Under the pieces are notes generated by a model, which saw only the letters and a list, made by a program, of their open reading frames with translations, made no database searches and was not told where the DNA came from. The translations under genes were made by a program, and so were the position numbers. From positions 1 through 64,000 of the forward strand of contig JAZAMN010000050.1 of NCBI GenBank assembly GCA_036229005.1: a stretch of 64,000 bases of DNA. Direction: 5' to 3'. Positions 995 to 18,618 of the stretch are shown here, one piece after another. Each line of letters begins with the position of its first letter. Positions within the stretch are counted from its first letter, which is position 1. Origin of the DNA: Myxococcota bacterium. GTDB lineage: Bacteria > Myxococcota_A > UBA796 > CAJQPC01.

Positions 995-1152
995 CGCATC
1001 CGGTCCCGAAGACGACGACGATGCTCGTCTTCCGCCTCGCGCTCAGAGATCAGCTCCGCCAAGGCCTGGATCAGGTGTTGGCGTGCGCTTCCGGTGGGGA
1101 TGGCGTCCTCGCGCTTGGGGCCATCACCCTTCTTGGCCTTCTGCTGGCTCAC
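991..1152 (-). CDS. 53-aa hypothetical protein
   Basis: Manual translation MSQQKAKKGDGPKREDAIPTGSARQHLIQALAELISEREAEDEHRRRLRDRMR; GTGA overlaps at both ends indicate translational coupling. Confidence 0.6.
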   Translation of the reverse strand: MSQQKAKKGDGPKREDAIPTGSARQHLIQALAELISEREAEDEHRRRLRDRMR

Positions 1153-2771
1153 TCCGCAGGCGGCGCCTCCATGCCCTCGGCACCCTCACCGTCGGCCTCC
1201 TTGCCGGCGTCCTTGCCCGGCCAGTAGGCGACGCGCTCTTCTGGGAGGCGGGCCCACAGATGGTTCAGGCGCAGCAGGCCACCGACCAGGAGGATGAACA
1301 GGCCGGTGATGGCCGCCATGAAGACGCCCTGGTGGGGGGCGCGCTGACCCATGGAGGCTTGCATGAAGGTGGGGGCGTCCGGGCTGACCAGCGCGATGGG
1401 CTTGCGACCGGAGAGCAGACCTGTGGTGTAGCCCCAGGCGCGGGTCTGCCCGTCGTGGCCCGCGAGCGAGGTGCTCAGGTTGGGCCAGGCGGCGTCTTCT
1501 CCCGCGGCGGCTCCCTGGGGGGCGACCTGGATGAACAGGGCTTCGGGGTGGTCCATCACCCAACCCACACCGTCAAAGGTTCCGTCCAGGGTGGTGCGCA
1601 TCGAAGTCGCCAGGATCTCCTGTTCGTGGCCCTGGTTCTCGGCCTTCTCGGCGTCCTCGATACGGCGGATGGCCTCCACGAGCTGCCAGTTGGGAATCAG
1701 CAGGACCGTGTAGCGGCTGCTGTCTCCGCGGGGGCCCACCTGGGGGTATGTGTGGGGCACCATGGCCAGGACGTCCTTGAGGCCGTACTCCTGACCGAGG
1801 TTGGCGTCCGCGTCGGGGCCCGGCTCGATGGGGTCGTAGAGCTTGCCGGAGAAGAGGTTCTCCTCGCCGTAGTTGACCTCCAGGCCGATCTCCTCGTCCA
1901 GCTCGCCCTCGCCGATGGTCACCCGCAGGATGTTCCAGGTGGCCTTGAGCGGGGTGGGGGCGTCCCAGGGCAGCTCGGAGGACAGGCGCAGCGGGATCAG
2001 CTTGTGGAAGCCGCGTACGTCGTCGCCGATCGCACGCTCGGGCGGGCAGATCCGAAGCCCGGCCCCCCACACATCCGCGGGCACCAGGCCCAGGGAGCTC
2101 TCGCCCTTTCCGGAGCCTTCGCCGGTGAGCTTGCGCCAGCCGTTGACCTCTTCGGGGGTGGAGGGCACAAAGCAGGCGTCAGGCGGACCGACCAACGCGG
2201 GCACGGGGTGGCCCTGACCCGCGAAGAACTTCCGGTCTCGGGGGACCTTGGCGCTCTCGCTGCGGTCATCCAGGAGGAAGGCCTGGCGGAGGTCGGGCCC
2301 GGAGCCGCCGGTCCAGCCTCGCCCGGTCTTGTGCTCCATGCACAGCTCCATGGCGAGCTGGGTGCGCACGAGCTGCTGGTAGCGCTCCTCACCGCCCTCG
2401 ACCAGGGCGGCCATGTAGCGGGGCATCACGGCGGGCTGGAGCTTGACGGGAGCGTACTCGCCGTAGCCCAGGCCGACAGACAGTTGGTCGTCCCGCAGGG
2501 GAGCTTCGCTGCCGGCGGTGTTCTCCAGCACGATGGCCAGAGTGGGGGTGAGCCGGTTGGCCACTGCGGTGGCCTCGAACACACCCAGGCCGTCCGGGCG
2601 CTTGGCCGGGCCGCAGCTCTTGGTCATGCCGCTGGCGGCCTGCCAGGCGTAGTCGGCGGCGGTGTCAGGGACCATTCCGGTGACGGCGGTGGCGTCGTAG
2701 ACACCGACCAGGGTCCAGCCGGCGTCGGCGGGGTCAGCGGCCAGGGCCGCTCCGATGAGGGCGAGAAGCAT
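1149..2771 (-). CDS. Hypothetical exported protein with N-terminal signal peptide and C-terminal TM anchor (CIS-associated)
   Basis: 540 aa; starts MLLALIGAALAADP; hydrophobic GVFMAAITGLFILLVGGLL near the C-terminus; 3 nt from the upstream gene. Confidence 0.75.
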   Translation of the reverse strand: MLLALIGAALAADPADAGWTLVGVYDATAVTGMVPDTAADYAWQAASGMTKSCGPAKRPDGLGVFEATAVANRLTPTLAIVLENTAGSEAPLRDDQLSVGLGYGEYAPVKLQPAVMPRYMAALVEGGEERYQQLVRTQLAMELCMEHKTGRGWTGGSGPDLRQAFLLDDRSESAKVPRDRKFFAGQGHPVPALVGPPDACFVPSTPEEVNGWRKLTGEGSGKGESSLGLVPADVWGAGLRICPPERAIGDDVRGFHKLIPLRLSSELPWDAPTPLKATWNILRVTIGEGELDEEIGLEVNYGEENLFSGKLYDPIEPGPDADANLGQEYGLKDVLAMVPHTYPQVGPRGDSSRYTVLLIPNWQLVEAIRRIEDAEKAENQGHEQEILATSMRTTLDGTFDGVGWVMDHPEALFIQVAPQGAAAGEDAAWPNLSTSLAGHDGQTRAWGYTTGLLSGRKPIALVSPDAPTFMQASMGQRAPHQGVFMAAITGLFILLVGGLLRLNHLWARLPEERVAYWPGKDAGKEADGEGAEGMEAPPAE

Positions 2772-2774: not shown

Positions 2775-4235
2775 CTACACCTTCACGTAGTCTTCGAGCT
2801 GCGGGGGCCGGAACGCCTCCGCGTCGTAGCGGCTGTAGATGGGGGCGCCGATCTCCACCTCGTAGGCGCGGGCGACGCCCTCGCTGCTGGAGATCAGGAT
2901 GTCGCCGTCGCGCAGGGTGGCGGTGTCGACGGTGCCGTCCAGCACCTGCAGCGTCCCCTCCGGGACCTTCTGGTCCCAGCGGTAGGTCGCCTTGCGCTTG
3001 CGACGGGAGAGATTGGGGGGCACGTAGGCGCGGAGGATCACCAGGCGCCGGGTCTGCACGTCACCGGCGTCGAGCTGCTGCACGTCCTGGCCGGACTGCA
3101 GGCGGATGGTGATCTCTTCGTCCTGCACCTCCAGGGTGAGGGGATCCGGCTCGAAGGCCGCCTCTCCGAGCACGTGCTGGGGGACGAAGGGGGGGCGCTT
3201 GGGCCACAGATCCCGGATGGGATCGTCCAGGTCCCCGATGCGGGCCTCACGGACCGGCACCACCCAGGCGTGCACCAGGTTGATGCGCCGGGTCTTGTTG
3301 GGGTTGAAGCGCAGGGCGCCCTCGGTGGGCTTCTCGAAGCCGACCGCCTCGCCATCAGTGGTGTTGTCCTTGCCGCCGGTGGGGACGACCTCCCACAGCA
3401 TGCAGGCGCGCGCGACCGCGATCGGCTTGGGCCAGATCACCGCGGCCCAGACGCAGATGTGCGCGACGCCGATGAAGGCCTGGGTGAAGTCCAGGGGACG
3501 GACCGCATCGCCGAGGACCTTGAAGACCAGCATGAGCAGCGCCATGCCGATCCCGGGGCCCAAGGAGGCGAGCAGGAAGGGGAAGCGGTCGGGGGTCCAG
3601 GCCTTGCCATCCTTGCGCCCGGCCGCGCGACGCTGCCGGTTGTCCTGGGGACGGCGGGCGATGGTGGCGGTGACCAGGAAGCTCAGCCCCAGCATCACGC
3701 TGGAGACCACGACGTCGCTGACGATGGGCATGCCCAGGCGACGGACAAAGCCCATTCCGAGGCAGAAGAGGGGGAGGAGGATCAAAAAGCTGACCCACTT
3801 GACCACACCCTTGGGACCGGGAGGCGTCCAAGCCGTGCGTCCCTCATGCCGACCCAAGGCGAGGAAGATGGGGGTCACCAGCGTGAGCACGGAGCCGACG
3901 ATCAGGTAGGCCGGCTCCTTGACCGCGGTCGCATCGTGCCAGAACAGGCAGGTCAGGGGCACCACCGACATCGCGATGGTCCGGTAGATCCGTCCGGTCT
4001 TGGTGTGCTGGACCGTGAGCTGCGGGTGCGGACCGTTGCCGATGGGGTAGCCGCGGAGCGCTGTGGCGATGGCCAGGGTGAGCATCATCCAGGGCATCAG
4101 GTCGTCGCGCCCCAGCGGGTTGCCGACAGGGACCAGGGTCTGGGCGCCCGTCAGAAGCATGAAGAGCACCAGCAAGCCGATGTTCTCCAGGACTCCGCGG
4201 CGAGCCCGGCGGAAGATGGCGCGGAGCGTGCTCAT
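2775..4235 (-). CDS. Hypothetical polytopic membrane protein (~8 TM) with soluble C-terminal domain (CIS-associated)
   Basis: 486 aa; eight hydrophobic segments in the first ~270 aa; ATGA overlap with the upstream gene. Confidence 0.78.
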   Translation of the reverse strand: MSTLRAIFRRARRGVLENIGLLVLFMLLTGAQTLVPVGNPLGRDDLMPWMMLTLAIATALRGYPIGNGPHPQLTVQHTKTGRIYRTIAMSVVPLTCLFWHDATAVKEPAYLIVGSVLTLVTPIFLALGRHEGRTAWTPPGPKGVVKWVSFLILLPLFCLGMGFVRRLGMPIVSDVVVSSVMLGLSFLVTATIARRPQDNRQRRAAGRKDGKAWTPDRFPFLLASLGPGIGMALLMLVFKVLGDAVRPLDFTQAFIGVAHICVWAAVIWPKPIAVARACMLWEVVPTGGKDNTTDGEAVGFEKPTEGALRFNPNKTRRINLVHAWVVPVREARIGDLDDPIRDLWPKRPPFVPQHVLGEAAFEPDPLTLEVQDEEITIRLQSGQDVQQLDAGDVQTRRLVILRAYVPPNLSRRKRKATYRWDQKVPEGTLQVLDGTVDTATLRDGDILISSSEGVARAYEVEIGAPIYSRYDAEAFRPPQLEDYVKV

Positions 4236-7200
4236 TGGCCCTCCTCCTCTCCAGCGCGTTCGTACTCGGCCAGGGTGGCCTCAACCGTGCGAAGCGCCTC
4301 GTCAACGCCCATGGCGCAGGGGTAGTCGATCTGGCCCTCGGGCAGGTTTCCGCCTGGGCTCATGTAGGGGTGCACCACTGCGCACCAGGGACCATACTCC
4401 TGGGCGACCTGCCGCAGCGGAGTCGCGGCCAGGTCGTCGATGCTCAGGCTCCAGGCCTCCCGCCACTCGTAGCGGGCGGAGCCCTCGCGACCCATCGTCT
4501 GCAGCATCATGCCGGTGAAGCACTGGACAGCAGCGTGTCCACAGGTGTTCTTGGAGCGGGAGCGGCCGTAGCTGCTCAGGTTGTCGGCAGCGGTGGAGGC
4601 CAGGCCTCGGCCAGGGTAACCACCGGCGATCTGGCTGCTCGTGCTCGTCTCACCGGCCCAGCTACGGGGGCTGCGGGAGCCGACCAGGTAGCCGGCCTCG
4701 CCGGGGGGCATGTAGTTCTGGGCGATGAGGTTGAAGGCACAGACCTGCGCTGCGGTCGGACAGATCCAGACCTCGTCGTTGCCGGCTCCGCGAGCGCCCT
4801 CCGAGTAGGGGTAGGGCATCCAGGCGCCGGGCTTGTTGCCTGCACAGCGCTCCACCTTGGGGTTGTCCTCGGTGTCGGCCATCCAGCGTCCGCGGCTCTG
4901 GTTCCAGGGCAGCAACAGTCTGTCCGTACTCCCACGCCGGCTACGAGGAGCGGCGCCAGGGTCGGTAGGGTCGCGGCGAAGGCAAGCGCCAAGGTCTCCG
5001 TCACGGGTGACCCAGGAGTCCTGGGACTCGCTGCTCTTGACGTTGTATCGGGCTGCACAGACCTGGGCGCAGAGCTGCTGCTCGGAGCTCACCCAGGCCG
5101 AATCGTCCAGCTCCGCCAGGAGCGGGTGGACCGGCTGGTAGGCCACGGCGCGCTTTTCGATGAGCTCCCAGCACACCCCGGGGCCAGCCGCCTGGTTCTC
5201 GTCGATGTCGCGGTACACAGCGTCGAAAGCGAGCTGGGTCTTGACCGCCCGCCGGCCGCTGGGGTCGTAGCCGCTGCCGGTGATGACGGGCGCGTACTGG
5301 TCCCAGAGGCTGAGCTCGGACTGGTAGGAGGGCTCACCGGTGGTCAGCTTCTCGTGACACTGCCAGACCTCGGGGGCCCCGCCCATGCCATCCTCGCCGA
5401 AGCGGGCGGTGGCGTAGCGGCTCACGAGATCGCGCTCCTGGTCGGGGTCTCCCGCCAGGGCCTGCCAGGCCTTGAGCCCGTTGAAGTAGCTGTCCCGGAG
5501 GTCGACCTCGCCGCAGAGCTCCTCGTAGCGCTGACCACTGACGCCTTCGCTGGCGCCGTAGCGGAAACAGCTCGCCATCTTCTCAGGCAGGTCAGCGGTG
5601 GAGGCTGTGACGATTGCTCGCCGGAGGGCGGCCGACTCGGACTCCTTTGCCTCGGGGTCCTCGGCCATCGGGGACCCCACATGGGTTGCGACCGCGGCGC
5701 CCTCGATGGTGAACTCGACGCGGCTCCGGTAGGTCTCGCAGGCCTGGTCCAGGTCCTTCATCAGCGCCATCAGAGGCTGAATGCCCAGGGCCTTGTCCTT
5801 GAGGAAGCGGTCCGGGTCAGCGACGGGGGACTCCAGCGCCAGGTCGTAGTCCCACTTCTGCTCGTAGGCGAAGGGCTTGTCGAGCACGTTGAAGCACGCC
5901 TGCGCCGCAGCGAGCTGGGCGTAGTTGTACTTGCGGTCCGCGTCGTTGGGCGGCAGCCAGGGGTAGTTCCCTGCCTGACCGTCCTGCTGTCGGTCCAGGA
6001 GGCCGCAGTAGCTGGCTTGCAGATCGTCAAAGCTGGGCCCTGCGCTGGGACCGGAGTCTCCGCAGTCGGGGTCGCTCGGGTCCGCGCCGTCGGCCATGCG
6101 GCGGATCTGGCAGCGGAACTCATTGACGAAGGCCGCGTGATCGGCCGAGCACAGCGACAGCGCTGGCTGGGGTGCCAACGCGGGAGGAGGCGTCGTGGCC
6201 TGAGGTGTGGGCTCAGCGAGCCAGGCAACGGTCACGGCCAGGAGCAGGATGAGGAGGAGGTTGCCGGCTGTCAGGGACAGGGCAAGCATCACCTTCTGCC
6301 TCACGGGGTTCGAGACATCTCGCTCCGTCAGGGTGCCAGCGAGGACATCTTCAGGCAGGGGAGGCCAGATCCCGAGATCACGGGTCAGCCAACCGGTGAT
6401 GGGAAACGCCACCCGGCCGCCAGGGAGATCCAGGGGGGAACCCCAGCCGTGGGCGCTGGGGCCCTCGTCGAGGCCCTCGTCATCCATCCAGGCGCTCATC
6501 GCTACCGGGGTGCGGGGGCCACCCTCCTGCCAGAGGGACCAGCGAACGACCTCGAAGGCGCCGTGGTGTGCCTTGGAGTCGTAGGTCAGCTTGCCCTTGA
6601 CCACGCACACCAGCGAGCGCTGCAGCGGGAGCCCCGCCCAGGGGTCCTCGAGCTCAGCGACGGTCTTCGTGGCGTTCGTGGGGGTCTCGTTCTCCTCGGA
6701 GACATCGTCCTCGGGCTGGACCTCCTCTCCCCAGAAGTCGCCTGCGTCACCGGTCTGGTCGTCGCCGTAGAAACCGCCGGTCTCGCCGTAGAAGCCACCG
6801 ACCTCCTCCTCCATGAAGGAGACGGGGTCCATCCAGCCCTCGGCCTCGCCCGCCTGGGCATCTTCGTCCGAGATGGTCTTGGTGGGGACACCGGGAGGGG
6901 GCAGCACCGAGCGCGATGCCAGGAAGCCTGGCCACTCAAGTACAACTCGGGGCGTCCAGGTGTCGCCCACGCGCCCAGCCACGAGCAGGTTCTTCCACCA
7001 GACCTCTTCGGTGGCGGCGTCCAGCAGGTGGTTGACCAGGGGAGGGGTCTTGTCCGGTGGGCCAGCGGGGCCGACCTCCAGGTAGTTCGCTCCGTGGACG
7101 AGCCAGAAACCTGCGATGCCAGGCTCGTCGCGCACGTCGACGATGACGTAGATGCCTGCCTCGGCACCGGTCGACGGCTGATCCAGGACGCCACGGCCCT

Positions 7201-7306
7201 CCCGCTCCTTGAGGGAGATGTTCACTTCGGCGAGGGCGTTCCGCGCGCTCGAGGTCGCGTTCTGCTCGTCGAAGGGGAAGGGGCCGGCCAGGATGAAGTC
7301 GGACAT
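4232..7306 (-). CDS. Large single-pass membrane protein with Cys-rich extracytoplasmic domain (CIS-associated)
   Basis: Start moved to ATG 7306 (TGATG overlap; MSDFILAGP), 1024 aa; one TM VMLALSLTAGNLLLILLLAVTVAWLA; about 20 Cys after the TM. Confidence 0.78.
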   Translation of the reverse strand: MSDFILAGPFPFDEQNATSSARNALAEVNISLKEREGRGVLDQPSTGAEAGIYVIVDVRDEPGIAGFWLVHGANYLEVGPAGPPDKTPPLVNHLLDAATEEVWWKNLLVAGRVGDTWTPRVVLEWPGFLASRSVLPPPGVPTKTISDEDAQAGEAEGWMDPVSFMEEEVGGFYGETGGFYGDDQTGDAGDFWGEEVQPEDDVSEENETPTNATKTVAELEDPWAGLPLQRSLVCVVKGKLTYDSKAHHGAFEVVRWSLWQEGGPRTPVAMSAWMDDEGLDEGPSAHGWGSPLDLPGGRVAFPITGWLTRDLGIWPPLPEDVLAGTLTERDVSNPVRQKVMLALSLTAGNLLLILLLAVTVAWLAEPTPQATTPPPALAPQPALSLCSADHAAFVNEFRCQIRRMADGADPSDPDCGDSGPSAGPSFDDLQASYCGLLDRQQDGQAGNYPWLPPNDADRKYNYAQLAAAQACFNVLDKPFAYEQKWDYDLALESPVADPDRFLKDKALGIQPLMALMKDLDQACETYRSRVEFTIEGAAVATHVGSPMAEDPEAKESESAALRRAIVTASTADLPEKMASCFRYGASEGVSGQRYEELCGEVDLRDSYFNGLKAWQALAGDPDQERDLVSRYATARFGEDGMGGAPEVWQCHEKLTTGEPSYQSELSLWDQYAPVITGSGYDPSGRRAVKTQLAFDAVYRDIDENQAAGPGVCWELIEKRAVAYQPVHPLLAELDDSAWVSSEQQLCAQVCAARYNVKSSESQDSWVTRDGDLGACLRRDPTDPGAAPRSRRGSTDRLLLPWNQSRGRWMADTEDNPKVERCAGNKPGAWMPYPYSEGARGAGNDEVWICPTAAQVCAFNLIAQNYMPPGEAGYLVGSRSPRSWAGETSTSSQIAGGYPGRGLASTAADNLSSYGRSRSKNTCGHAAVQCFTGMMLQTMGREGSARYEWREAWSLSIDDLAATPLRQVAQEYGPWCAVVHPYMSPGGNLPEGQIDYPCAMGVDEALRTVEATLAEYERAGEEEGQ

Positions 7307-8979
7307 CAGCGCTCCACCGGGGTCTCGACGAGGACCAGGGCTTGCTGCCGGAGCAGCTCGATCTGTTGCCACTCAAGCCAGGCCCACTCGGAGATGGAGT
7401 CGCCTACACCGCGATCCATGATGGGCTCGGCGCCGGCCTTGTTCATGGGCAGGCGGACGAGGTCCAGCGAGCCCTCGACCGGAGTCATCTCCTCGGGGGG
7501 AGTCAGATCCTCCCGGGCGGCCTGACGGCTGGCATAGGCCAGAGGGATGGTGCCTGCTGCTTCCTCGTCCTCCTTCTTGAGGCGGTCCGTGGAGAGCCAT
7601 GCCCGCAAGGCATCGCCCTCGACGCGCGGGACCCAGAGGCCCTGCCGCTTCTTCTCTGACTTGGGGGGAGAGACGGGGATCCACATGGTGAAGTGGCTGT
7701 TCTGCAGGACGGGGGGCCGGTTCTCGGCAAAGCTCATCTTGGAGCCGGTCCAGAGGTCCAGAGGGAGGAGGCCGATGTCCAACTGCAAGGTCAGATCCTC
7801 ACCAATGTGCGGGACGATGTCCTTGAGCCTCATGGGACCGATCGCCAACGAGGCCCGGCGGGTGGGCGTTGCGTAGGTCAGCAGGTGGTTCACGCGGCCG
7901 AACCAGACCCAAGCGGAGATGCGGGAGGCCCGGGTCATTGCCAGTTTGGCGGCGTCCTTGGCCTCACCGTTGGCTGCAGACTCCCAGTCCTTGAGCTTGT
8001 CGTGGATCAAGGAGAGAGCCTGGGCCACGGTGATCACGGCGGGAAGGGTGATGCGACCCAGGGTGACCCAGCGCTCCTGGCCTGAGATGCGGCCGTCAGG
8101 GGGGATCGGGCCGCCGCGGACCCAGGCGTTGGTGTCCATGCGCTCAAGCCCATTGAGCACGTCAACGTCGCCGGAGAACAAGGTCACCACCGTGAAGGTC
8201 AGTTCGTCCTTGGCCTTGGCGAAGGGCTGGTGGCAGCGAACGCATCGCTCGCCGGGGAGCCACTTCTTGTCGCCCGAGTAGAGCTGCCCACAGGTCTCGC
8301 CCCAGAAGGTGGGGTTGCCGCAGGCCACGACGTTGTCGGGCTCGGCCTTGGGCTTGCCTGCGGAGGACTTGATGCCCTGGGAGGGGGCCAGGCGCAGGCT
8401 GTCGAAGAGCCGGGAGGGCAGGGTGCTCGCCCGGATCTTCTTGTCTCGGAATCCGAGCACAGAGATCGCTGCGATCAGGGCCAGGAAGACCCAAAGGGCC
8501 GGGGAGAGGTCATCCGGGAATGGAGGGCGGAAGATGACACCCGGCAGGTAGGGGTTGCCCGGAACACCGCCGACCTGACAGACCGTGTTGGCAGCAGCCT
8601 CGGTCACCATGTCGGTGGCCTGGACCACCGCACCGCCGAGCTCGACGCACTTCTCTTCGAAGCCCGCGGCGATCCGCCTGGGCAGGGCAAAGAGGATGAT
8701 GGCGTTGAAGATCACCGACACCAGGATCATTGACCAGGGGTTCCGCCTGCGCAGCAGGAAGAACTGTCTGGAGATCATCCACCCGGTCAACGCGACAGCG
8801 ACGCCGAGCACCACCGCGAGCTCCACGCCTGTCGGAGGACGGACGGGGGAAGGGGTGGTGAAGAGCTTCGACAGAGCGAACCACGCACCGCCAGCCGCGA
8901 GGAGGGGAAGCCCTGCCTCGTAGCCGGCCTCGACGGCCCGCCAGGTGCCGAGCGCCTTGACCGGATCCGGACCGCTCAC
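7306..8979 (-). CDS. Hypothetical 4-TM membrane protein with putative Zn-binding Cys cluster (CIS-associated)
   Basis: 557 aa; four N-terminal hydrophobic helices; CGNPTFWGETC...CVRC; GTGA overlap with the upstream gene. Confidence 0.75.
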   Translation of the reverse strand: MSGPDPVKALGTWRAVEAGYEAGLPLLAAGGAWFALSKLFTTPSPVRPPTGVELAVVLGVAVALTGWMISRQFFLLRRRNPWSMILVSVIFNAIILFALPRRIAAGFEEKCVELGGAVVQATDMVTEAAANTVCQVGGVPGNPYLPGVIFRPPFPDDLSPALWVFLALIAAISVLGFRDKKIRASTLPSRLFDSLRLAPSQGIKSSAGKPKAEPDNVVACGNPTFWGETCGQLYSGDKKWLPGERCVRCHQPFAKAKDELTFTVVTLFSGDVDVLNGLERMDTNAWVRGGPIPPDGRISGQERWVTLGRITLPAVITVAQALSLIHDKLKDWESAANGEAKDAAKLAMTRASRISAWVWFGRVNHLLTYATPTRRASLAIGPMRLKDIVPHIGEDLTLQLDIGLLPLDLWTGSKMSFAENRPPVLQNSHFTMWIPVSPPKSEKKRQGLWVPRVEGDALRAWLSTDRLKKEDEEAAGTIPLAYASRQAAREDLTPPEEMTPVEGSLDLVRLPMNKAGAEPIMDRGVGDSISEWAWLEWQQIELLRQQALVLVETPVER

Positions 8980-9845
8980 TTGCCGTCCCCGTCCTTGCCT
9001 CCGGTGAGCGCGGCATAGGGGCTCGCCTCTTCGGTGGCCCCCACGAACTGCAGGAGCTCGTTCGCTGCGCGCTCAACGGAGCGGTTGAGCTGGTCGTACA
9101 GGGCGGAGAGCAGGCGAACGCGCTCCAAGGTGGTGGACGGGCGCATCTGGATCTGCAGCCGGGCAGACTGGAGCGCCGCGGCAGCGACAGTCTGGTAGCG
9201 CACCCAGTTCCGGCCCAGGACCTGCCGATCCCAGACCGAGCCCTCGGGCTCAGCCCGCCAGATGGTCTGCTCAAGCTGTTCGAACTGCTTGAGCAGGTTC
9301 CGGATGGCGGTGTGGTCGGGGGCCCAGACGCGTCGGAGGTCCGTGATCCAGTCCTTGCCATTCCCCAAGGAGATCGCGAGGGGCAGCAGGTGTGCGTCGT
9401 CCATCCGGTCGGGCTTCACGAAGCCCAGCCGTGCAGAGACCACCTCATGGGCGACAGCAAGCTGCGCGCCCTCACCGGCGTCGATCTGGGGGACCAGGGC
9501 CAAAACGCCACGCACTGCAGAGCCGGCAGCCGTAGGCCACTTGACCTTCAGGGGCTTCTCGACTCGCAGCAGGTATCGGCGACCTGCGCGGCTGCTCACG
9601 ATCGCCGTGCCCGGGCTGACCACTGCGGAGTCTGCGCGAGAGTCCGGACGGACAGTGCCCGGAGGGCCTCCGGCGGTCCACTCTCCGTCGAGCTCCAGAC
9701 CATCCATGATCAGACCGCTGGAGCCGGGCCAGGCCCACTCCAGGAAGGTCGACATCAGCCGGTTCTCACCAGTGGAGATGGCCTGCAGGGATTCGAGATC
9801 GAGGAGGGCGCCCTCGGCGGGGCGGAAGACGGCGTTCTGTCTCAC
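8976..9845 (-). CDS. Baseplate-associated protein, possibly TssK-like (shoulder plus helical neck)
   Basis: 289 aa directly after the wedge genes; FRPAEGALLDLESLQ, GLIMDGLEL and HLLPLAI...WITDLRRVWAP followed by amphipathic helices resemble TssK/fibre-shoulder patterns (by eye only). Confidence 0.5.
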   Translation of the reverse strand: MRQNAVFRPAEGALLDLESLQAISTGENRLMSTFLEWAWPGSSGLIMDGLELDGEWTAGGPPGTVRPDSRADSAVVSPGTAIVSSRAGRRYLLRVEKPLKVKWPTAAGSAVRGVLALVPQIDAGEGAQLAVAHEVVSARLGFVKPDRMDDAHLLPLAISLGNGKDWITDLRRVWAPDHTAIRNLLKQFEQLEQTIWRAEPEGSVWDRQVLGRNWVRYQTVAAAALQSARLQIQMRPSTTLERVRLLSALYDQLNRSVERAANELLQFVGATEEASPYAALTGGKDGDGK

Positions 9846-10642
9846 GGGCGACTCTCAGAAGGAATGACCAGGCGAAGGGCGACCCAGGTCGGAAGCAATC
9901 GCAGTAGCTGTCGGGGGAGCGGGCGCTCGCCGTCCCAGCGAAGGAGGATGTCCTCTCGCCGCAGAGGGTACTGGTGCTCAGCTTTCTCAGCTTGGAACTT
10001 GAGAACCCCCCCAGAGATGCGGTAGGCCGGAGCGCTGGCCTTCTCGGAGCGCTCCTCCCACCACTGGCTGGAGTGGCAGACGAAGGCTTCGTTCAGGATG
10101 CCATCGGGGTTTGTGCCGTCTCGATCGGCGGTCGCGACCCCCTCCAATTGGTGGAGGTCTTCGGTGCTCTCCAGCACCTCGCGCGCCCTCTCGACGGTCC
10201 CCCGCGACGGGTACCACTGAGGAAGTTGTGCCGCCAGACGTGCGAGGATCTCCGGATCATCCCGGTGCAGGTCTTGATCCACACCGAATGCTTCCACCAG
10301 GGTTGCCAGCAGGTGGGGGAGCGGGGTCAGGGGGCTCCAGAGCCGCTCCCGGTTGGCGATCAGCCACTCGGAGCGGGCCATCAGCAGGAGCAGGGCCTCC
10401 TGCAGGGTGACCTCGCCGTCGGCCTGAGCCTGAATGACTGCATTGGTCATCAGGCTGGGGAGGAATGCCGCGTAGGGGAGGTGGGAAAACTGTCGCTTCC
10501 CCTCCTCGTCCTGAATCTGGGTGTACGGCGCGATCTGGGTGTCCAGAGAGCTGTCGACCCAATCCAGCGCCTCCAGGGTTCCGGCTGCGCTGCGATGGGC
10601 CCACTCCAGGCCTGCGGTTCGCGCCGCGAGGTCCTGACTCAC
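9842..10642 (-). CDS. Baseplate wedge protein, P2 gpI / T4 gp7 / TssG-like
   Basis: SPLTPLPHLLATLVEAFG...LPQWYPSRGTVERAREVLE matches the tail-protein-I pattern (DP..AP..FL.WLA...Y..RGT...L); follows baseplate J. Confidence 0.7.
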   Translation of the reverse strand: MSQDLAARTAGLEWAHRSAAGTLEALDWVDSSLDTQIAPYTQIQDEEGKRQFSHLPYAAFLPSLMTNAVIQAQADGEVTLQEALLLLMARSEWLIANRERLWSPLTPLPHLLATLVEAFGVDQDLHRDDPEILARLAAQLPQWYPSRGTVERAREVLESTEDLHQLEGVATADRDGTNPDGILNEAFVCHSSQWWEERSEKASAPAYRISGGVLKFQAEKAEHQYPLRREDILLRWDGERPLPRQLLRLLPTWVALRLVIPSESRP

Positions 10643-13101
10643 GAGATCCCCCGGAGGCTCTGCCGCTCAACGACGCCGGCGTTGAGCATCAACAGCGCCT
10701 TGGGAACGGGAGCGCTCCGGCCGGTGGAATCCACCAACTGGCCGGACATCTCCGAGGTGACGAAGGAGGGGAAGTGCAGCGCCTGGTTCTCCGGGCCCTG
10801 GAGGGTCAGGGGCCAGAAGCGGGTCACGATGGCCCCCCGGATCGTGGGCAACCGCCTGGCCTGACGCCGGATCTCCTGCTGGATAGCCTGGCGCGCCCAG
10901 TCGAGGTCCTCGTCAGCGAGCAGGCCATCTTTCGGCCCAAGGACAACCAGGAGCTGCTCCGGACCGGCGCTGTCGAGCTGACGTCGCAGAGACACAGTCT
11001 CCCTGTCCTCGTCCTCGCCGGGGCCTGCAGAAGGCCAGAGTGCGGTGGAGGCCAGAGCCCGCTCGGAGTAGGTCCAGATCCGGACCACCCAATCCTGGCC
11101 TCGTCGGCCAATCGCGGTGCGGCACATCGCCTCGAAGTCCGCAGGGAGGACGGCGGTCCCACCCCCAGGCGTGAACAGCCGGCTGGTGGCGCTCTCCTCC
11201 GTCTCTCGATCCATGCCGAGGAAGGTGCTGGTCGGGTTGGTGCAGGCGAAGATGCGGGGGTTGGCCATCATCTCCTGCTCGACCAGGCGGATGCTGCCCG
11301 CAGGGACCTCACCACCGGCGCCGTCGGTGCGGCGGTACCACTCCAGGTTGATGGCGGTGCCTGGCCGGAAGGGGCGGCGGATGCCCTGCTCATCAGGTGC
11401 GTTCAGGGTCATCTCGCCAGCGGTGGGGTCCACGCTGACTCCAGCGAAGTCCTCCAGCGGCTCCCGTCCGTCCACGTCGAAGCTGGACAGGGCGAAACCA
11501 CGGAGGATGCGGGCTGCGTCCCGGGGGAGGGGACCATCCACCATACGCGCCATGACCTGACCGGTCACCAGATCCTCGGAGAGCAGCGAGACACCCTCGG
11601 GCACGTTCCGCTCGACCAGGATGGTTCGGCCGTCCATCACGGGGGGCGCGTTGATGACCATCGTCACGTTGGCGAAGAGACCACGGGGGCGCCCCTCGAT
11701 CGAGAACAGCAGCCCCACGAGCTCCTGCGGCGTGGTGATGTCCAGGGCGACCATGAGCTCCATGCGAGAGCCGCGGCGGGGAGGGGGCGAGGGCAATCGC
11801 CAAGCGACCCGGACCTTGAGGGGCTCGCGGGTCATGCTCCCGTCCTCCAGCAGCCCGTAGGCACGGAAAATGGGCAGGTCGTCGGGCTTGGAGCCGTCCT
11901 CCAGGAGCAGGCCCAGGCGGAGGGTCCCCAGCTCCCGGTTGCTGCTGGAGAGGTCGATGTGGGCGATGGTGGTCTGGTCGCCACGGCGGAGCTGGCTGTA
12001 GATGCCAGCCTCGAGCGCGGCGCCCACCCAGGTAGGCTGGGGGACTCCGGTCTCCTCGGCGTGGCCGAAGTACCTGCGGATCGCAGGCTTCATCGGGGCG
12101 AGCCGGGTGTCCATGTTGGTCAGCGTGGTCCAGATCGCGTCCACGACCGGTGCGGGGAGGGGCTGCGCGCGGCGGACGAGGATGTCCTTGGTGTCCAGGT
12201 TCTCCGGCATGTCCGGGAGCAGGAAGGTCCCCTCCTCCGGGCCGGGCAGCGGACGACGGCCTCGCATGGTCGCGGGGATGAGCGGGTGGCTGCTGCAGAC
12301 CACGGGCGGGGACCAGGTGCTCCCGTCCAGGGTGCCCCAGTTGCCGATGAGATCGCCGAAGGGGGTCAGGCCTGCGGGGGCGACTTCGTCGAACGCCGCG
12401 GAGACATCCGGGACCGCCTTGACGATGATCCGGTCCTTGCCCGAGCGCTCAGCGCTCAGACGCAGCCAGCCGAGCTTCTTCTCCTCGAAGCGCTCGATGA
12501 CCCGCTCCAGAGTCTCCATCAGCTTGTCGACGTTGTTGGTGACGAGCACGTACTCGACGCGCTCGTGGTCGAAGACGCGGGCGGGCTGCCGCTCACCAGG
12601 GATGACCTGGAGCGCGTCGATCCCGTTGTCACCCTTGGGCTGGCCTGCGGTCTGCAGGACATCCTGCGCGATCTCAGCCAAGGAGAGGAACTTGGCGCGT
12701 CGCAGGGTGGCGCCGGACTCCGCGGGAACGAAGGCGACGATGTCGGTCTCTTCGGTCTGCTTGGTGAAGAAGCGGTACTTCTTGGGGAGCTTGCGGCTGA
12801 CCTCGAGGACACCCTCGATGGAGGGCTCCAGAATCAGGGTGCCGAGCGCAGGCTGTGCAGGGAGCAGATGCCCCCCCATCATGTGCACGAAGTGCTGGAC
12901 CACCGAGAAGGGGTAGCTGTCCAACTGCTCGGACATCATCTCCAGCATCCAGGCGGCCTGCTCCAGCATCAGCCAGGCGGGATCGGTGGGGTCGTGGCTG
13001 GACTCAGCGAGAGCAGGGTTGATCTGGCTCAAGCGATCGCGGACGTCACGCAAGAGCTCGTCGGCGTCAACCTTCAGCTGTCCGGGAGGGGGTACGCGCA
13101 C
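10639..13101 (-). CDS. Baseplate J/gp6-like wedge protein (Afp11-like)
   Basis: N-terminal HDPTDPAWLMLEQAAWMLEMMSEQLDSYP...PAQPA; C-terminal YRRTDGAGGEV, GMDRET, AVLPADFE. Confidence 0.88.
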   Translation of the reverse strand: MRVPPPGQLKVDADELLRDVRDRLSQINPALAESSHDPTDPAWLMLEQAAWMLEMMSEQLDSYPFSVVQHFVHMMGGHLLPAQPALGTLILEPSIEGVLEVSRKLPKKYRFFTKQTEETDIVAFVPAESGATLRRAKFLSLAEIAQDVLQTAGQPKGDNGIDALQVIPGERQPARVFDHERVEYVLVTNNVDKLMETLERVIERFEEKKLGWLRLSAERSGKDRIIVKAVPDVSAAFDEVAPAGLTPFGDLIGNWGTLDGSTWSPPVVCSSHPLIPATMRGRRPLPGPEEGTFLLPDMPENLDTKDILVRRAQPLPAPVVDAIWTTLTNMDTRLAPMKPAIRRYFGHAEETGVPQPTWVGAALEAGIYSQLRRGDQTTIAHIDLSSSNRELGTLRLGLLLEDGSKPDDLPIFRAYGLLEDGSMTREPLKVRVAWRLPSPPPRRGSRMELMVALDITTPQELVGLLFSIEGRPRGLFANVTMVINAPPVMDGRTILVERNVPEGVSLLSEDLVTGQVMARMVDGPLPRDAARILRGFALSSFDVDGREPLEDFAGVSVDPTAGEMTLNAPDEQGIRRPFRPGTAINLEWYRRTDGAGGEVPAGSIRLVEQEMMANPRIFACTNPTSTFLGMDRETEESATSRLFTPGGGTAVLPADFEAMCRTAIGRRGQDWVVRIWTYSERALASTALWPSAGPGEDEDRETVSLRRQLDSAGPEQLLVVLGPKDGLLADEDLDWARQAIQQEIRRQARRLPTIRGAIVTRFWPLTLQGPENQALHFPSFVTSEMSGQLVDSTGRSAPVPKALLMLNAGVVERQSLRGIS

Positions 13102-13109: not shown

Positions 13110-13532
13110 TCAGTTGTCGACGAGGGCCTGGATCGTCAGGATCCCGGCGTCGGTTTGGATGTCTACGTCCACCTGGAGCACTGCCGCGGCGCCAGTGCCG
13201 ACCAGGGCGCGCTCGGCGACAGGGATCTCGGGAAGGTGGAAGCGGTCTCGGCTGCCGCTCTGAGGGACCGCGTTCACCCGCACTCCCGCGACCTCTACAT
13301 CAGGGAGGAAGCGGGAGAGGGCTCGCTGAACCTCATACCGGGCCTGGACGACGCTGGCCTTGGACGCCTGGGCGCCCAGCATGCCTTCCAGGTTGCACCC
13401 GAACTCAGGGCGCCAAGGGATCTGTCCTGGACGGGTCTGTAGCACCATCCGGATGCGGTCCACCAGAGCCTCTTCCTCGGACTGGTGGGGCCGCAGGACC
13501 CCCAGCGGGACGCTGTTCTGCAGACGTGGCAT
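13110..13532 (-). CDS. GPW/gp25 family baseplate protein (Afp9/TssE-like)
   Basis: IRMVLQTRPGQIPWRPEFGCNL...ALSRFLPDV, the gp25 T.PGER..RP.FG motif. Confidence 0.9.
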   Translation of the reverse strand: MPRLQNSVPLGVLRPHQSEEEALVDRIRMVLQTRPGQIPWRPEFGCNLEGMLGAQASKASVVQARYEVQRALSRFLPDVEVAGVRVNAVPQSGSRDRFHLPEIPVAERALVGTGAAAVLQVDVDIQTDAGILTIQALVDN

Positions 13533-14608
13533 CAGGGACCCGTGGGGAGGCTGTCGGAAACGATGTCCAAGGTGGTCTTGAAGCCAGCGCCAGGGGCGAT
13601 GGAGTGGTTCACCTGGTTGACAAAGAAGTCTCCGGAGAGGGGCCAGTGGCCGTCCTTGACGGTGACCTTGGAGCCAGCGTGGATGTCCGGCCGCCCATAG
13701 AGGGTGACCTTCCCCTTGATGAAGCTCATGTTGGATTCCTTGAGCTTGCCCTCGGCCTCCTGCTTGAGCTCCGAGCTGCTCCTGTCCACTTGGGCGGGCA
13801 GGAACATCATCCGGTCGGTCTTCCAGGCGCTGGAGACGAATTCAGCGCCGGTCTTCCCGCCCGAGTAGGCTTTGAGGGCGCCCTTGTCTGCCTCGGCCTT
13901 GATGTCTTCGACGGCCTTGCTGTCGTAGGCCACCGTCATCACCTTGGAGTAGACCCCGGAGATGTCGGCGGTGAGGTTCATCGACACCACGTCCTTCTTC
14001 CAGGAGACCGAAGCGCTGGACTTGGCCGCATGGTCAGCGACCGTGGGCATGAAGTGGAGCTTTCCGTCGAGCTCGCGGACGGCGAAGCCCACCTTCTTTG
14101 CGAACTCTGAGAGGAAGGCCAGGTCTTCCTTCTCGTTCTGCTGGAGCTCCTTGTCCGTCGGCTGGTACTCAAGGATGTCGCCTGCTGAGAGGCCGACCTC
14201 AGATGCCATCGTGCTGATGGCGTCCTTGAGGCTCTGCCAGTTGGCCTCGTTCGGGACGCGTCCCCTCCGAAGCTTGGCGAGCTGGTCGACGCCGGTGAGG
14301 GTGATCTTCCAGGTGGCGTCTCGCCCAAAGTCATGGGTCATCCCCATGAGCATGCCCTTGTACTGCTTGGACTTGACTCCTCCGGAGACACACTCGAAGC
14401 AGTACTCGGCGCCGATCCACTTCTCGCTGGCCTTGATCAAGGTGTAGCGGTCTGCGGTCATCGGGACGGAGAACTCGATTGTGATTGCATCGAGCGCCGA
14501 GACGGACTCGGACATCTCAATGCGGATCATGTGCTCCATGAGCTCCTTGTCCAGCTCCGCGTCGGCGATCTTCAGCGTGAACGCGGGAGGGAGTGCGGAT
14601 GCAGGCAT
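13532..14608 (-). CDS. Phage late control D / gp27-like baseplate hub
   Basis: QQNEKEDLAFLSEFAKKVGF, GKVTLYGRPDIHAGSKVTV...SGDFFVNQVNHSI...GFKTTL. Confidence 0.85.
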   Translation of the reverse strand: MPASALPPAFTLKIADAELDKELMEHMIRIEMSESVSALDAITIEFSVPMTADRYTLIKASEKWIGAEYCFECVSGGVKSKQYKGMLMGMTHDFGRDATWKITLTGVDQLAKLRRGRVPNEANWQSLKDAISTMASEVGLSAGDILEYQPTDKELQQNEKEDLAFLSEFAKKVGFAVRELDGKLHFMPTVADHAAKSSASVSWKKDVVSMNLTADISGVYSKVMTVAYDSKAVEDIKAEADKGALKAYSGGKTGAEFVSSAWKTDRMMFLPAQVDRSSSELKQEAEGKLKESNMSFIKGKVTLYGRPDIHAGSKVTVKDGHWPLSGDFFVNQVNHSIAPGAGFKTTLDIVSDSLPTGP

Positions 14609-14617
14609 CGGCTCCCC

Positions 14618-15319
14618 CTACTTGAGCAGTGACGCAAGGATATCCTTGCGCGATGCGGAGGTCTTTGAGCCTGCGTTGCCCGAGGCCGACTGCTTTCCGG
14701 GGGTGTAGTCACCGTCCAGGAGAGAGTCGACGTCAGAGGCTGCGCCCATCGCGCGGCCCTGGAGCTTGAGGCTGCTCTGGACCCGACGAACGCCGCCTTC
14801 CTCGTCGAAGAGGAGGAACTCGTTGGTCAGGCTGGTGATGAAGCCCTGGAACTCGAAGGGCCCCCAGACGAATGCCACAGCGGGCGGACGGATCTGGGGC
14901 TCGGAGTCCGAGCCGAAGTTGAAGGGCAGGGTCAGCCGGTGGAGTTGGGTCACCTTGTCGAGCGCCGTGCGGTCCGACGGCGTGGGCTGCATCGACTCGG
15001 GGAGCTGGCTCTGCAGGCCTGATCGGACCAGGTTGGCCGGGGAGGGCATGAAGTCGGCTGCCTTGGTCTCGCTGCGGTCCTCGCTCTCGTCAAAGAGGAG
15101 AGTGACCTCGAGCTCGTCGACCTTGCCGGTCTTGAAGGCCATGCGCTGCCAGGCGTGGCCCATCGCGATGCTCTGCTCCAAGGCCCACTCGGTCGCCCGG
15201 GTGTACTTGAAGGAGGTCGGGTTGAAGTCCGCGACGACGTTCCAGTCGGCGTTGTCCAGGCAGTAGATGGAGGCCTTGGGCTTGTCGCTGCCACCACCGA
15301 AGAGGCTGGAGAAGTTCAT
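14618..15319 (-). CDS. CIS tube initiator (Afp7/gp48-like N-terminal domain), no evident LysM
   Basis: FNPTSFKYTR, LEVTLLFD, RPPAVAFVWG..F.GFITSL...FLLFD..G...R. Confidence 0.85.
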   Translation of the reverse strand: MNFSSLFGGGSDKPKASIYCLDNADWNVVADFNPTSFKYTRATEWALEQSIAMGHAWQRMAFKTGKVDELEVTLLFDESEDRSETKAADFMPSPANLVRSGLQSQLPESMQPTPSDRTALDKVTQLHRLTLPFNFGSDSEPQIRPPAVAFVWGPFEFQGFITSLTNEFLLFDEEGGVRRVQSSLKLQGRAMGAASDVDSLLDGDYTPGKQSASGNAGSKTSASRKDILASLLK

Positions 15320-15328
15320 GATGGCCTC

Positions 15329-16123
15329 CTAGAAGAACGCCGCAACGGGCGGCACGGGGACGGTGGAGAGGGACTCGAAGGCGAAGGTCAGCTCGTCGAC
15401 GGAGACCGCGCTGGACATGGAGTCCATGTTCGGGGCCTTCCAGCTCACTGGCACGCAGCCGCCCATCCGGTACATCCGGATTGGGGAGTGGTTCCGGTCC
15501 AGGTGGATGATGGTGACGGACTTCTTGAACTTGGTCCCGGCGATGAGCGAGTTCATCCACATGGAGAACTGGACATCCCAGATGAGGCCAGACTTGAGCG
15601 TGACCTTGCCGTACCCGGTCTTGTCGAAGAGCAGGTGAGGACCGTCGTTCTTGCCGCCTTCCTGGTACTCCATCGGGGTGTGGGTCACCTCGATGCCGGA
15701 GACCGCCGCGAACTCACCGATGGGGTTGATTCCCAGGAGGACGTGAAAGTTGTAGCCGGGATGGATCGGGAAGAGCTTGGAGAGGTGGTCGGTGACGCCC
15801 ACCGAGCCGATTGCCCGGGGAGTGATGGGGGTCGCCTCCGCCTCCGGGATGTTCTGCTCTTCTGCGATGGTCTGGAGTTCGGTGTCGATCGCGCCCCAGT
15901 TGGCCTGACCGATGGCCCGGGCCTCAAGCTGGGCAGCCTCCTGCTCCTCGATGACGCCCAGGATTGCGCTGGTCTCGAGGTCCTTGGCGGTCGGATCCAT
16001 CGCCTGGATGATCTGAAGGACCCGGTCTTTCTCCGAGTCCTCCATGGGTCTTGGTTCGGCTCCAATCTGGTCTGACACCAGGGCTTCGATCAGAGCGGCT
16101 GTAGAGTTGGACATTTCGGCCAT
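15329..16123 (-). CDS. gp19-family tube-like protein (Afp5-like) with ~115-aa N-terminal extension
   Basis: C-terminal YNFHV...EFAAVSGIEV..MEYQEGG.N...YGKVTLKSG...PVSWKAP.M...VSVDELTFAFE; TGATG coupling. Confidence 0.85.
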   Translation of the reverse strand: MAEMSNSTAALIEALVSDQIGAEPRPMEDSEKDRVLQIIQAMDPTAKDLETSAILGVIEEQEAAQLEARAIGQANWGAIDTELQTIAEEQNIPEAEATPITPRAIGSVGVTDHLSKLFPIHPGYNFHVLLGINPIGEFAAVSGIEVTHTPMEYQEGGKNDGPHLLFDKTGYGKVTLKSGLIWDVQFSMWMNSLIAGTKFKKSVTIIHLDRNHSPIRMYRMGGCVPVSWKAPNMDSMSSAVSVDELTFAFESLSTVPVPPVAAFF

Positions 16124-17385
16124 CAGGACACCTCAACATCGGGCGAATCGCCCGGTTTCAGGGAGACCCTCACCTTGACATCTCGCTGCCAGGGCACCAA
16201 CTGCAGGGTGACCTGCGCATTCAGGTTTGGTGCGATGGGGTTGGCGTCTGCCGCGGTTTGGATCTCGGGGGGACCGCCACCCGGTCCAGGCTCGATGATG
16301 CTGTTGCGAACGAACGGCATCATGGCCTCCTGGAGGGCGGTCTGGAGGGCGATGGCGTGGGTAGCGTCCGCGTTGCGGAAGAGCAGTTGCTCCGAGGCCT
16401 GCTGTAGACGCTGGTGAATGGTCTTGACGGTCCGTAGACAGGGGAGGGGCCACTCACCGAGAGGTCGACGGAAGCTGCCCTCGCTCTCGATGCTCACGTG
16501 GTCGCTGCCCCGGCGAATCGCCAGGCGGACCTGGAACTCCTCGAGAGGGTCAGGCTCAGGCCTGGTTCGGGTCAATTGGAGCTCGGCCATCCGAGTCGCC
16601 ATCAGGGTTCGACGACCTCCGGGCAGTGGGAGGCGTCGCCCCACCAACGGAAGGCTCATCTCGTTTCGGCTGCCCGCGAGCGCGGAGGCGACCAGGGTTG
16701 CGCCACTCCGCCATGCGTGGGCTTCCATGCGATGTGGTGCACCTGTCCAGCGGACGAGGGCCGCATCGATCCCGATAAGGCGGGTCATCGCCGCCCTGAG
16801 CTCGGGGGCCGGACCCTCAGGGAGGTCGATACAGGCCACCTGGTAGCGCTCTGCCCAAGGAGCGGAGAGCTTCCTGGTTGCGACCACCATGCGCTTGAGC
16901 CTGCTGACGATGCCCGGGTCCGTGCCGGGACCGACAGGGATGGGCCCGCCAAGGTCAGGGAATACCAGCACCGCACCGGGCTGGTGGAAGAGCATCGAGT
17001 CCACAACGGAGATGAAGTCCGCGTTGTCGAGCTCCCAGGGCTTCACGCCTGGAATCCTGGCCAGGACGATGTCTACGGAGGACGCACCACCGGCGAGCGC
17101 GAGCTGGACCGAGTCCTTCATGCGCGAGGGCAGGGAGGACTGGAGGCCGGGCAGCCACCGGGCGGAGCTGGCGGTTCCGAGCCGGATGTGCTCGGCGCCC
17201 ATGCTGGTTCCACCCTTGGTCGCTCGGATGAGGTTCTCAGGGTAGAGCTGCGCCAAGAGGGGGTGGTCGGGCGGAGCGATCCCTACGAGCAACAATGGGG
17301 CGCTCCCGGCGCGGTCGCGTCCTGTGTGGACGCTTCCGACCTGGACCTGGACCCGTTGAGGCACTGCTGGCAGCTGTGGGTTCAC
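16123..17385 (-). CDS. Degenerate second sheath-like protein
   Basis: C-terminal LRTVKTIHQRLQQASEQLLFRNAD...ALQEAMMPFVRNSII...LNAQVTLQLVPWQRDVKVRV parallels the sheath C-terminal domain; SVQLALAGGAS resembles the sheath FF.NGG motif. Confidence 0.6.
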   Translation of the reverse strand: MNPQLPAVPQRVQVQVGSVHTGRDRAGSAPLLLVGIAPPDHPLLAQLYPENLIRATKGGTSMGAEHIRLGTASSARWLPGLQSSLPSRMKDSVQLALAGGASSVDIVLARIPGVKPWELDNADFISVVDSMLFHQPGAVLVFPDLGGPIPVGPGTDPGIVSRLKRMVVATRKLSAPWAERYQVACIDLPEGPAPELRAAMTRLIGIDAALVRWTGAPHRMEAHAWRSGATLVASALAGSRNEMSLPLVGRRLPLPGGRRTLMATRMAELQLTRTRPEPDPLEEFQVRLAIRRGSDHVSIESEGSFRRPLGEWPLPCLRTVKTIHQRLQQASEQLLFRNADATHAIALQTALQEAMMPFVRNSIIEPGPGGGPPEIQTAADANPIAPNLNAQVTLQLVPWQRDVKVRVSLKPGDSPDVEVS

Positions 17386-17391
17386 GCTCTC

Positions 17392-18075: not shown

Positions 18076-18080
18076 GCCTG

Positions 18081-18611: not shown

Positions 18612-18618
18612 TTCAAGA

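Follow-up and report, generated by a model that had tools for sequence, protein, structure and literature searches.

The window analysed here, a stretch of 64,000 nucleotides from a Myxococcota bacterium (contig JAZAMN010000050.1), carries on its minus strand an operon for a contractile injection system (CIS) that includes a gene for a protein of 289 amino acids (aa), the subject of this analysis. From the spike end, the operon encodes an OB-fold spike protein, a sheath, a gp19 tube, a chaperone, a 420-aa protein without a family, a second gp19 tube, CIS_tube, a gp27-like hub, gp25, an 820-aa baseplate J-like protein and a 266-aa Tail_P2_I-like protein. The 289-aa gene sits after the 266-aa gene and is followed by four genes for proteins with hydrophobic segments (557, 1046, 486 and 540 aa). 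It begins with a GTG start at 9845, overlaps its neighbour on either side by 4 nt and is a genuine conserved gene. A plus-strand frame across 8976-9845 was discarded, since homologues and gene order support the minus strand. The features on which the argument depends are the following:

8976..9845, minus strand: predicted headless TssK-like protein (shoulder and neck), 289 aa, from the open reading frame (ORF), an AlphaFold2 model and structure searches
9321..9845, minus strand: its predicted shoulder, residues 1-175 (a helix near the N-terminus at 17-38, then a beta-sandwich at 45-174), from the model and structure search
9000..9320, minus strand: its predicted helical neck, residues 176-282, aligned to TssK up to TssK residue 304, from the model and structure searches
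9183..9260, minus strand: most conserved stretch of the family (residues about 196-221, a Trp-rich turn after the first neck helix), mean top-residue fraction 0.92 versus 0.61-0.71 elsewhere in the folded part
9842..10642, minus strand: Tail_P2_I-like wedge protein, 266 aa, in the TssG/gp7 position (Pfam Tail_P2_I E 0.012, below cut-off)
7306..8979, minus strand: 557-aa membrane protein, next downstream, with 3-4 predicted transmembrane (TM) helices (the loop joining the third to the fourth carries Cys residues), followed by a Cys4 motif resembling a zinc ribbon and a predicted ubiquitin-like (Ubl) fold; putative docking partner
7768..8211, minus strand: predicted Ubl domain of the 557-aa protein (residues 257-404, with insertions), from structure search

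The sequence-only reading of this DNA had proposed by eye that the protein is a TssK shoulder and neck without the head. All the motifs it quoted are present in the 289-aa minus-strand ORF: EGALLDLESLQ at residues 11-21, GLEL at 49-52, LLPLA...G...D...WAP at 153-176 and AIRNLLKQFEQLEQ at 180-193. An AlphaFold2 monomer model built from a 120-row alignment (pLDDT 90.8, pTM 0.88) has one helix (17-38) ahead of the beta strands (45-174), with further helices behind them (179-281). With this model, Foldseek against the PDB ranked TssK (6N38) first (E 8.7e-7, TMq 0.42), followed by further TssK entries, with the baseplate of the thylakoid-anchored CIS (tCIS; 7B5H, E 3e-4) and IglD (E 7e-4) at lower ranks. 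VIA-align gave TssK 5MWN as the top match (Z 10.4, root-mean-square deviation (rmsd) 6.4, 238 residues), aligning model residues 2-282 with TssK 1-304. A search of 48,161 chains that was independent of Foldseek also placed TssK at the top (Z 9.8, rmsd 5.8, 238 aligned), and the rows with Z of at least 8 numbered four, namely three TssK chains and the receptor-binding protein (RBP) of phage 1358. The latter covers the shoulder only (model 26-175, Z 9.0), as phage RBPs do in general, and when predicted viral structures served as targets, the matches were N-termini of RBPs and fibres. Identity to TssK across the structural alignments was 10-15%. Furthermore, in each of the 120 aligned close relatives the chain runs on for just 7-26 residues past the final column of the neck, which leaves no head, and none of the 120 has a C-terminal shaft or receptor-binding domain. 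The proposed fold is thus borne out by the monomer model, the three structure searches (Z 9.8-10.4) and the 120 of 120 chain ends, and the protein is predicted to consist of a TssK-like shoulder and neck that stops where the TssK head begins.

At the sequence level, the TssK resemblance is undetectable and becomes visible only in structure searches. The T6SS_VasE profile (PF05936) matched 0 of the 120 family members and 0 of 24 distant relatives, and the 289-aa protein matched no Pfam, PHROG or NCBIfam family, the NCBIfam CIS13_fam model included. Three PDB searches by sequence and by profile returned no TssK and nothing meaningful, while an Atlas lead to a VasE cluster reached 0.83 by features, below its bar, with a TM-score of 0.62 by query to the VasE model. 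The likeness noticed by eye was confirmed as a fold and found no counterpart in the VasE profile or in the PDB sequence searches: the protein would act like the N-terminal part of TssK but is no member of the TssK family.

The family itself is well populated, with 162 relatives at E of at most 0.001, of which 120 were aligned (245-317 aa), and the named relatives carry mostly Myxococcota labels. A hydrophobic 19-residue window is absent from 118 of the 120 members, so that the protein in the fibre position has no TM helix. The best-conserved 24-residue windows start at residues 195-199 (0.91-0.93), in the turn past the first neck helix. Judging from the order of the helices in the model, this turn would lie far from the shoulder, at the distal end of the neck. 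It is a putative partner-binding patch and, as a conserved neck turn, is unlike a variable receptor tip.

In type VI secretion systems (T6SS), the shoulder of TssK attaches to the baseplate and the head to the membrane complex TssL/TssM, as described in the available text of PMC5924787. The modelled likeness to T6SS TssK/VasE (enteroaggregative Escherichia coli, PDB 5MWN, 6N38, 5Y0E) would comprise shoulder and helical neck over the whole 289-aa protein (238 residues versus TssK 1-304), and the model also aligned with Francisella IglD (8DQL; Z 7.8, 212 aligned). Additionally, the 289-aa gene adjoins the wedge gene in the TssG position. The differences are that the protein is headless and has no PF05936 match, and that the locus has tube and sheath genes of the extracellular CIS (eCIS) type. 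T6SS membership was rejected for lack of a head, of a VasE profile match and of the TssL/TssM families; the window's own genome (94% complete) had no VasE, DotU (PF09850) or IcmF (PF06761) match, with TssJ outside that search.

The sequence-only reading had treated the fold as the key test of an anchored CIS, which does not hold, because TssK-like shoulders are already described in this position in eBAP3 and in Alg19 of the released AlgoCIS, so the fold is expected under anchored and released models alike. According to the accessible text of Nachmias et al. 2026 (PMC12923769), eBAP3 fibres of eCIS are encoded after Tail_P2_I genes and look like TssK, and some are reduced to 'minimal attachment-only modules'. 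The 289-aa gene likewise lies directly after a Tail_P2_I-like gene and encodes a TssK-like shoulder of about 200 aa. In contrast, eBAP3 is reported there mainly from Bacillota and Actinobacteriota and is treated as a receptor-binding fibre anchor, and the word 'transmembrane' is absent from the main text of that paper. Compared by description, the 289-aa protein may be an extreme eBAP3-like member. In AlgoCIS, as far as the available descriptions go (PMC13314943, PMC8894135), the fibre Alg19 has a TssK-like shoulder and neck, its central helices bind the C-terminal loop of Alg12, and it bridges two wedges. Alg19 and the tCIS crown protein Cis19 have a trimeric shoulder (with a neck in Alg19) on the wedge, as the 289-aa protein probably does too, and the 7B5H crown chain was matched at E 3e-4. 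As described, both differ from it in being long (Alg19 has 1443 aa), with distal parts that face targets, and in docking on Afp12-type wedges, whereas the 289-aa protein ends after the neck. Alg19 is not in the structure-match lists of the 289-aa model, which is no argument against the likeness.

These precedents suggest one alternative directly, namely that the 289-aa protein is a minimal baseplate clamp of the eBAP3 type, whose trimer spans neighbouring wedges and holds the iris together when the machine fires, in the manner of Alg19, within a CIS that is released or stays in the cytoplasm. The membrane proteins would then reach the machine differently, for instance via the baseplate J-like protein as modelled for CisA and Cis11, or serve export, lysis or sensing. 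The published partial accounts favour this alternative in three respects: eBAP3 follows Tail_P2_I, resembles TssK and has attachment-only forms (PMC12923769); Alg19 bridges two wedges; and the Streptomyces membrane protein CisA was modelled on Cis11, not on a fibre (PMC12237407). A clamp should be most conserved in its shoulder, yet the neck turn is (0.92 versus 0.64). We consider this alternative possible without expecting it to prove correct.

On the wedge side, the proposed link to the baseplate is supported by in-frame fusions with the upstream Tail_P2_I-like protein. An exhaustive profile search returned 88 proteins, some of which exceeded the family norm in length; these longer forms were recovered by this search, whereas a word-index search gave none. 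A Tail_P2_I-like domain was found at the N-terminus of 6 of the 9 longer relatives tested (E 1e-33 to 1e-54). The proteins P0252, P0255, P0259 and P0314 join the Tail_P2_I-like and TssK-like parts in frame, and among 50 loci examined in the class, fused open frames were present in the DNA of three: L063 (7469-10279), L064 (8881-11073) and L065 (300-2093), two of which belong to one genus. A junction Met, picked by eye, is kept in each fusion, with GGAG located 7, 13 and 8 bases upstream of it in L063, L064 and L065, respectively, compared with 20 of 201 ATGs in those loci. Such an arrangement would fit a trimer completed by one fused chain and free short subunits; the same picture, a fusion with an internal Met, is equally produced by simple stop loss between coupled genes. 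By analogy, the linkage would match the contact between the C-terminal loop and the shoulder helices in AlgoCIS. A scan of metagenome DNA with the fused protein P0252 gave no match.

The gene order on the other side is equally regular. The order Tail_P2_I-like gene, 289-aa family gene, 557-aa gene was observed in 32 of 32 GTDB loci. Among 182 genomes of the class, the 289-aa family occurs in 50 and the 557-aa family in 48, all within those 50; the two genomes without the 557-aa family carry just a stand-alone paralogue with a C-terminal extension. Fifty of 61 match rows were inspected as loci, consisting of 30 returned (the window included) and 20 chosen, mainly weaker matches and second copies; this set overlaps the 32 loci, and the two are not summed. 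The 557-aa gene directly follows in 42 of the 50, and the 8 orphans all come from one family of genomes. Every CIS-linked copy examined has the 557-aa gene directly downstream, which argues against a clamp that works apart from the membrane proteins, while the existence of stand-alone paralogues without the membrane gene speaks for one. Some of these paralogues are extended at the C-terminus by 115-130 aa, three of them by about 130 aa. In a 401-genome sample of the phylum, all 20 matches lie in the same Myxococcota class, so kin dominate the co-occurrence counts.

The 557-aa protein was modelled with pLDDT 91.7 and shows four N-terminal helices, three of which score as TM, an invariant Cys pair between the third and fourth helix, and four invariant Cys at 220-249. 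Its basic loops suggest that the C-terminal part is cytoplasmic. Many unrelated Ubl domains, the EccD1/EccD5 Ubl among them, converge on region 257-404 (Z about 5.7-6.7); the Foldseek Ubl matches are weak, none reaching E of at most 0.001. The Ubl fold is internal and is followed by about 150 residues. The protein had no Atlas match, no PDB sequence match and no YukD profile match. The EccD/YukD proteins of the type VII secretion system offer a likeness by analogy only, in that their Ubl fold is attached to membrane helices of a secretion apparatus or operates together with them. A complex prediction with two copies of the 289-aa protein (1-284) and residues 180-557 of the 557-aa protein scored 0.00 in two runs against a mark of 0.32, with no controls folded, and so speaks neither for nor against an interaction.

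The best explanation, to which we give about an even chance of being right, is that a headless TssK-like trimer clamps the wedge and docks the CIS onto the 557-aa membrane protein. The connection to the membrane proteins, also proposed in the sequence-only reading, is inferred from the order of the genes, their co-occurrence, the absence of a head and the conservation of the neck patch. Better evidence for anchoring than the fold comes from the restriction of the family to one class, the lack of a receptor-binding end, the invariant position between wedge and membrane genes, the presence of the family in every one of the 48 genomes that carry the 557-aa family, the strong conservation of the neck turn and the similar ending of a second CIS in this genome, described below. 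In this mechanism, the 289-aa protein would trimerise as TssK, Alg19 and Cis19 do, and the N-terminal helices of its shoulder would contact the Tail_P2_I-like protein at its C-terminal loop, as happens in the pairs TssG-TssK and Alg12-Alg19. The Trp-rich turn (about 196-221) at the far end of the neck would bind the cytoplasmic zinc-ribbon/ubiquitin-like part of the 557-aa protein and so replace the TssK head. The 557-aa protein and three further envelope proteins would form a membrane complex unrelated in sequence to TssL/TssM. As an outcome, an eCIS-type machine would fire from, or be triggered at, the inner membrane of its producer, and would not be released with fibres.

Membrane-associated CIS are known in other forms, according to the available texts. 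Streptomyces CisA is a membrane protein encoded just after the CIS baseplate genes and modelled on Cis11, not on a fibre (PMC12237407); the Anabaena tCIS anchors through a TM helix of Cis13 (PMC8894136); and SalCIS (SalCis13/19) has a membrane gene in its CIS cluster, with SalCis19 described as a hydrolase (10.1101/2025.06.01.657177). The likeness of these systems to our locus is an integral membrane protein encoded and inherited with baseplate genes, and CisA and SalCIS provide precedents for a membrane gene in this place, which count in favour of docking. As described, CISSc differs in having no fibre-like subunit (PMC12237407), and tCIS in that its Cis13 has a TM helix, in contrast to the 118 members of the 289-aa family mentioned above. 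In the accessible accounts of CisA, tCIS and SalCIS, no TssK-like adaptor combined with a TM/zinc-ribbon/Ubl protein is described, and the available text of a preprint on Haliangiales CIS makes no mention of TssK (10.1101/2024.12.19.629468). Our literature search found no description of the 289-aa family or of a CIS with a TM/zinc-ribbon/Ubl partner, in a search that mostly left out subscription papers, and the supplements of PMC12923769 may list these loci.

Several points weigh against docking at the membrane. The fold does not discriminate, as minimal eBAP3 forms and the shoulder and neck of Alg19 occur in eCIS, Alg19 in a released one. With a TM of about 0.4 and an rmsd of about 6 A, the structural match is moderate, and it was obtained with a predicted monomer; the Ubl assignment of the 557-aa protein has Z under 8. 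Co-occurrence and gene order would also be expected from plain operon inheritance among kin of one class, and 8 of the 50 inspected copies lie outside any CIS locus and have no 557-aa neighbour (L069, L071-L076, L082). Furthermore, the mode of action of a CIS is unreliable from sequence alone in this group, according to the available text of PMC12998442. In the second-type CIS described below, 8 of 30 loci have no YukD membrane neighbour; the absence of profile similarity between the short proteins of the two systems, and between their partners, makes the parallel architectural only.

The proteins encoded downstream also bear on whether the 289-aa protein is the proximal half of a split tail fibre, whose neck patch would bind a separately encoded head or fibre in a released CIS with the usual eCIS targeting. 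The gene does occupy the fibre position, and the 115-130-aa extensions of some paralogues, together with shoulder proteins of about 510-525 aa that occur in other Myxococcota CIS loci, show that this lineage can add heads to such proteins. Between the 289-aa gene and the membrane genes there is no soluble fibre-like gene, and no family match indicating a fibre was obtained for the downstream genes tested. A giant DxDxDG-repeat protein (up to about 2700 aa) is encoded after the 557-aa gene in 13 of 23 loci (L005 about 12100-18185, L018 about 12500-18407 and 11 others). Where complete, it mostly ends in a hydrophobic segment and a basic tail, and the one scanned contains Cu-binding_MopE repeats. 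It looks anchored at the cell surface, to judge from these sequence features, and not like a part of the particle, which counts against a fibre role. In the window the giant gene is not found at this spot; 22 such long ORFs occur elsewhere in the same genome. Overall, we hold a split fibre to be improbable.

The same genome encodes a second CIS on contig C24 (G000:C24:100509-119921; L083, L084), with Pvc16, sheath, tubes, hub, gp25, baseplate J and Tail_P2_I. Its last three genes, in order, encode Tail_P2_I, a short protein of 307 aa that is putatively of the shoulder type, and a 303-aa membrane protein. The N-terminus of the 307-aa protein matches NCBIfam CIS13_fam (E 8e-11, below cut-off), and the 303-aa protein has a YukD match (E 4e-7), hydrophobic segments and a PHD-like end. 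A YukD membrane neighbour follows the 307-aa-type gene in 22 of 30 loci. The 307-aa query matched 123 of the 401 phylum genomes (many weakly and at the N-terminus only) and most genomes of this order. Profile comparison of the 289-aa family with the 307-aa protein gave probabilities of 0.1% and 2.1%, hence no similarity, and comparison of the two membrane partners (557 and 303 aa) was negative. In another Myxococcota class, L119 (5583-8294) encodes a 511-aa shoulder protein, followed by three FHA-domain genes, two of them with TM segments.

Two related genomes from another family have, directly behind the short shoulder gene of their second-type CIS, genes for ThiF/E1, a protein with TM segments and a Cys motif, and a UQ_con E2-like protein (L121 9513-12655 and L122 4394-7537). 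A YukD-like Ubl gene is also present in L121, the one examined fully. By their sequence matches, these genes possibly form a bacterial ubiquitination module attached to a CIS. Their presence in two related genomes, with the Ubl gene in one, lends some support to a further alternative, in which the 557-aa protein and its counterparts belong to, or are left over from, a conjugation module of the ubiquitin-like kind, which would act on the TssK-like protein by modification or regulation and would not be an anchor. In the window's locus no E1 or E2 was seen, and the Ubl fold lies inside the 557-aa protein, which deprives it of a free C-terminus for conjugation; we give this alternative very little credence.

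Returning to docking at the membrane, a broader proposal can be put forward tentatively, and we would sooner expect it to fail than to stand. An uncultured Myxococcota class would have independently made an eCIS into a T6SS-like, envelope-anchored weapon, in which a headless TssK-like trimer sits in a Ubl/zinc-ribbon protein that forms the cytoplasmic side of a membrane complex of four proteins with no relation to TssJLM; a giant repeat protein of the cell surface would often be encoded alongside. This design would recur in the second CIS and may derive from a bacterial E1-E2-Ubl module. If true, the locus would provide a living model of a phage-type shoulder protein becoming a membrane connector. 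It would touch on how tail-like machines change from release to membrane anchoring or back, and on how TssK came to connect the baseplate with the membrane. The locus offers a small and specific test, combining a single headless adaptor that bears a single conserved patch with one membrane neighbour that does not vary and with naturally occurring fusions of wedge and adaptor that retain an internal start. It also adds a CIS-linked membrane protein family, unrecognised by Pfam, PHROG and NCBIfam, in mostly uncultured myxobacteria. If anchoring fails, the 289-aa gene would encode an ordinary short eBAP3-like clamp.

The remaining genes of the operon are as follows:

13110..21434, minus strand: CIS core (gp25, gp27-like hub, CIS_tube, two gp19 tubes, chaperone, sheath, OB-fold spike), from Pfam
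within 13110..21434, minus strand: 420-aa protein, probable second sheath-like protein by position alone
10639..13101, minus strand: baseplate J-like wedge protein, 820 aa (TIGR02243 E 1e-9, below cut-off; phrog_6 E 0.0056)
4232..7372, minus strand: single-pass membrane protein, about 1025-1046 aa (probable start 7309), TM 361-379, Cys-rich C-terminal part (20 Cys versus 1), putatively periplasmic
2775..4235, minus strand: polytopic membrane protein, 486 aa, six hydrophobic windows and a soluble C-terminal part, kept in related loci
1149..2771, minus strand: 540-aa protein with a signal-peptide-like N-terminus and a C-terminal TM helix

Among 22 loci that extend 9 kb or more downstream, the 1046-aa gene was seen in 17, the 486-aa gene in 11 and the 540-aa gene in 9; for several of the remaining loci, a giant inserted gene occupies the available downstream DNA. 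The 1046-aa protein has no Pfam, PHROG or NCBIfam family, and an FHA domain suspected by eye in the 486-aa protein was dropped, as no family in the same three collections matched. The operon is truncated by the contig end (window 1-994), and the locus thus cut yielded no gene for a cap, tape measure, PAAR or AAA+ protein. A genome of the same genus (L134 8281-18471) adds genes for proteins of 1380, 1140, 328 and 547 aa, none with a Pfam, PHROG or NCBIfam match; a Pvc16-like cap suggested there by eye is unsupported by any family match.

Directly upstream of the CIS operon, at 21546-22688, lies a gene for a FolE2 GTP cyclohydrolase fused to a C-terminal HTH_3 domain, and a similar gene is present on contig C20. 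Elsewhere in the genome, contig C2 (G000:C2) carries a lone tube gene (3011-3541) away from both CIS loci. Contig C2 also has a separate pair of OB-fold spike genes and a small PAAR-like ORF, identified by eye (72385-75423), outside both CIS loci.

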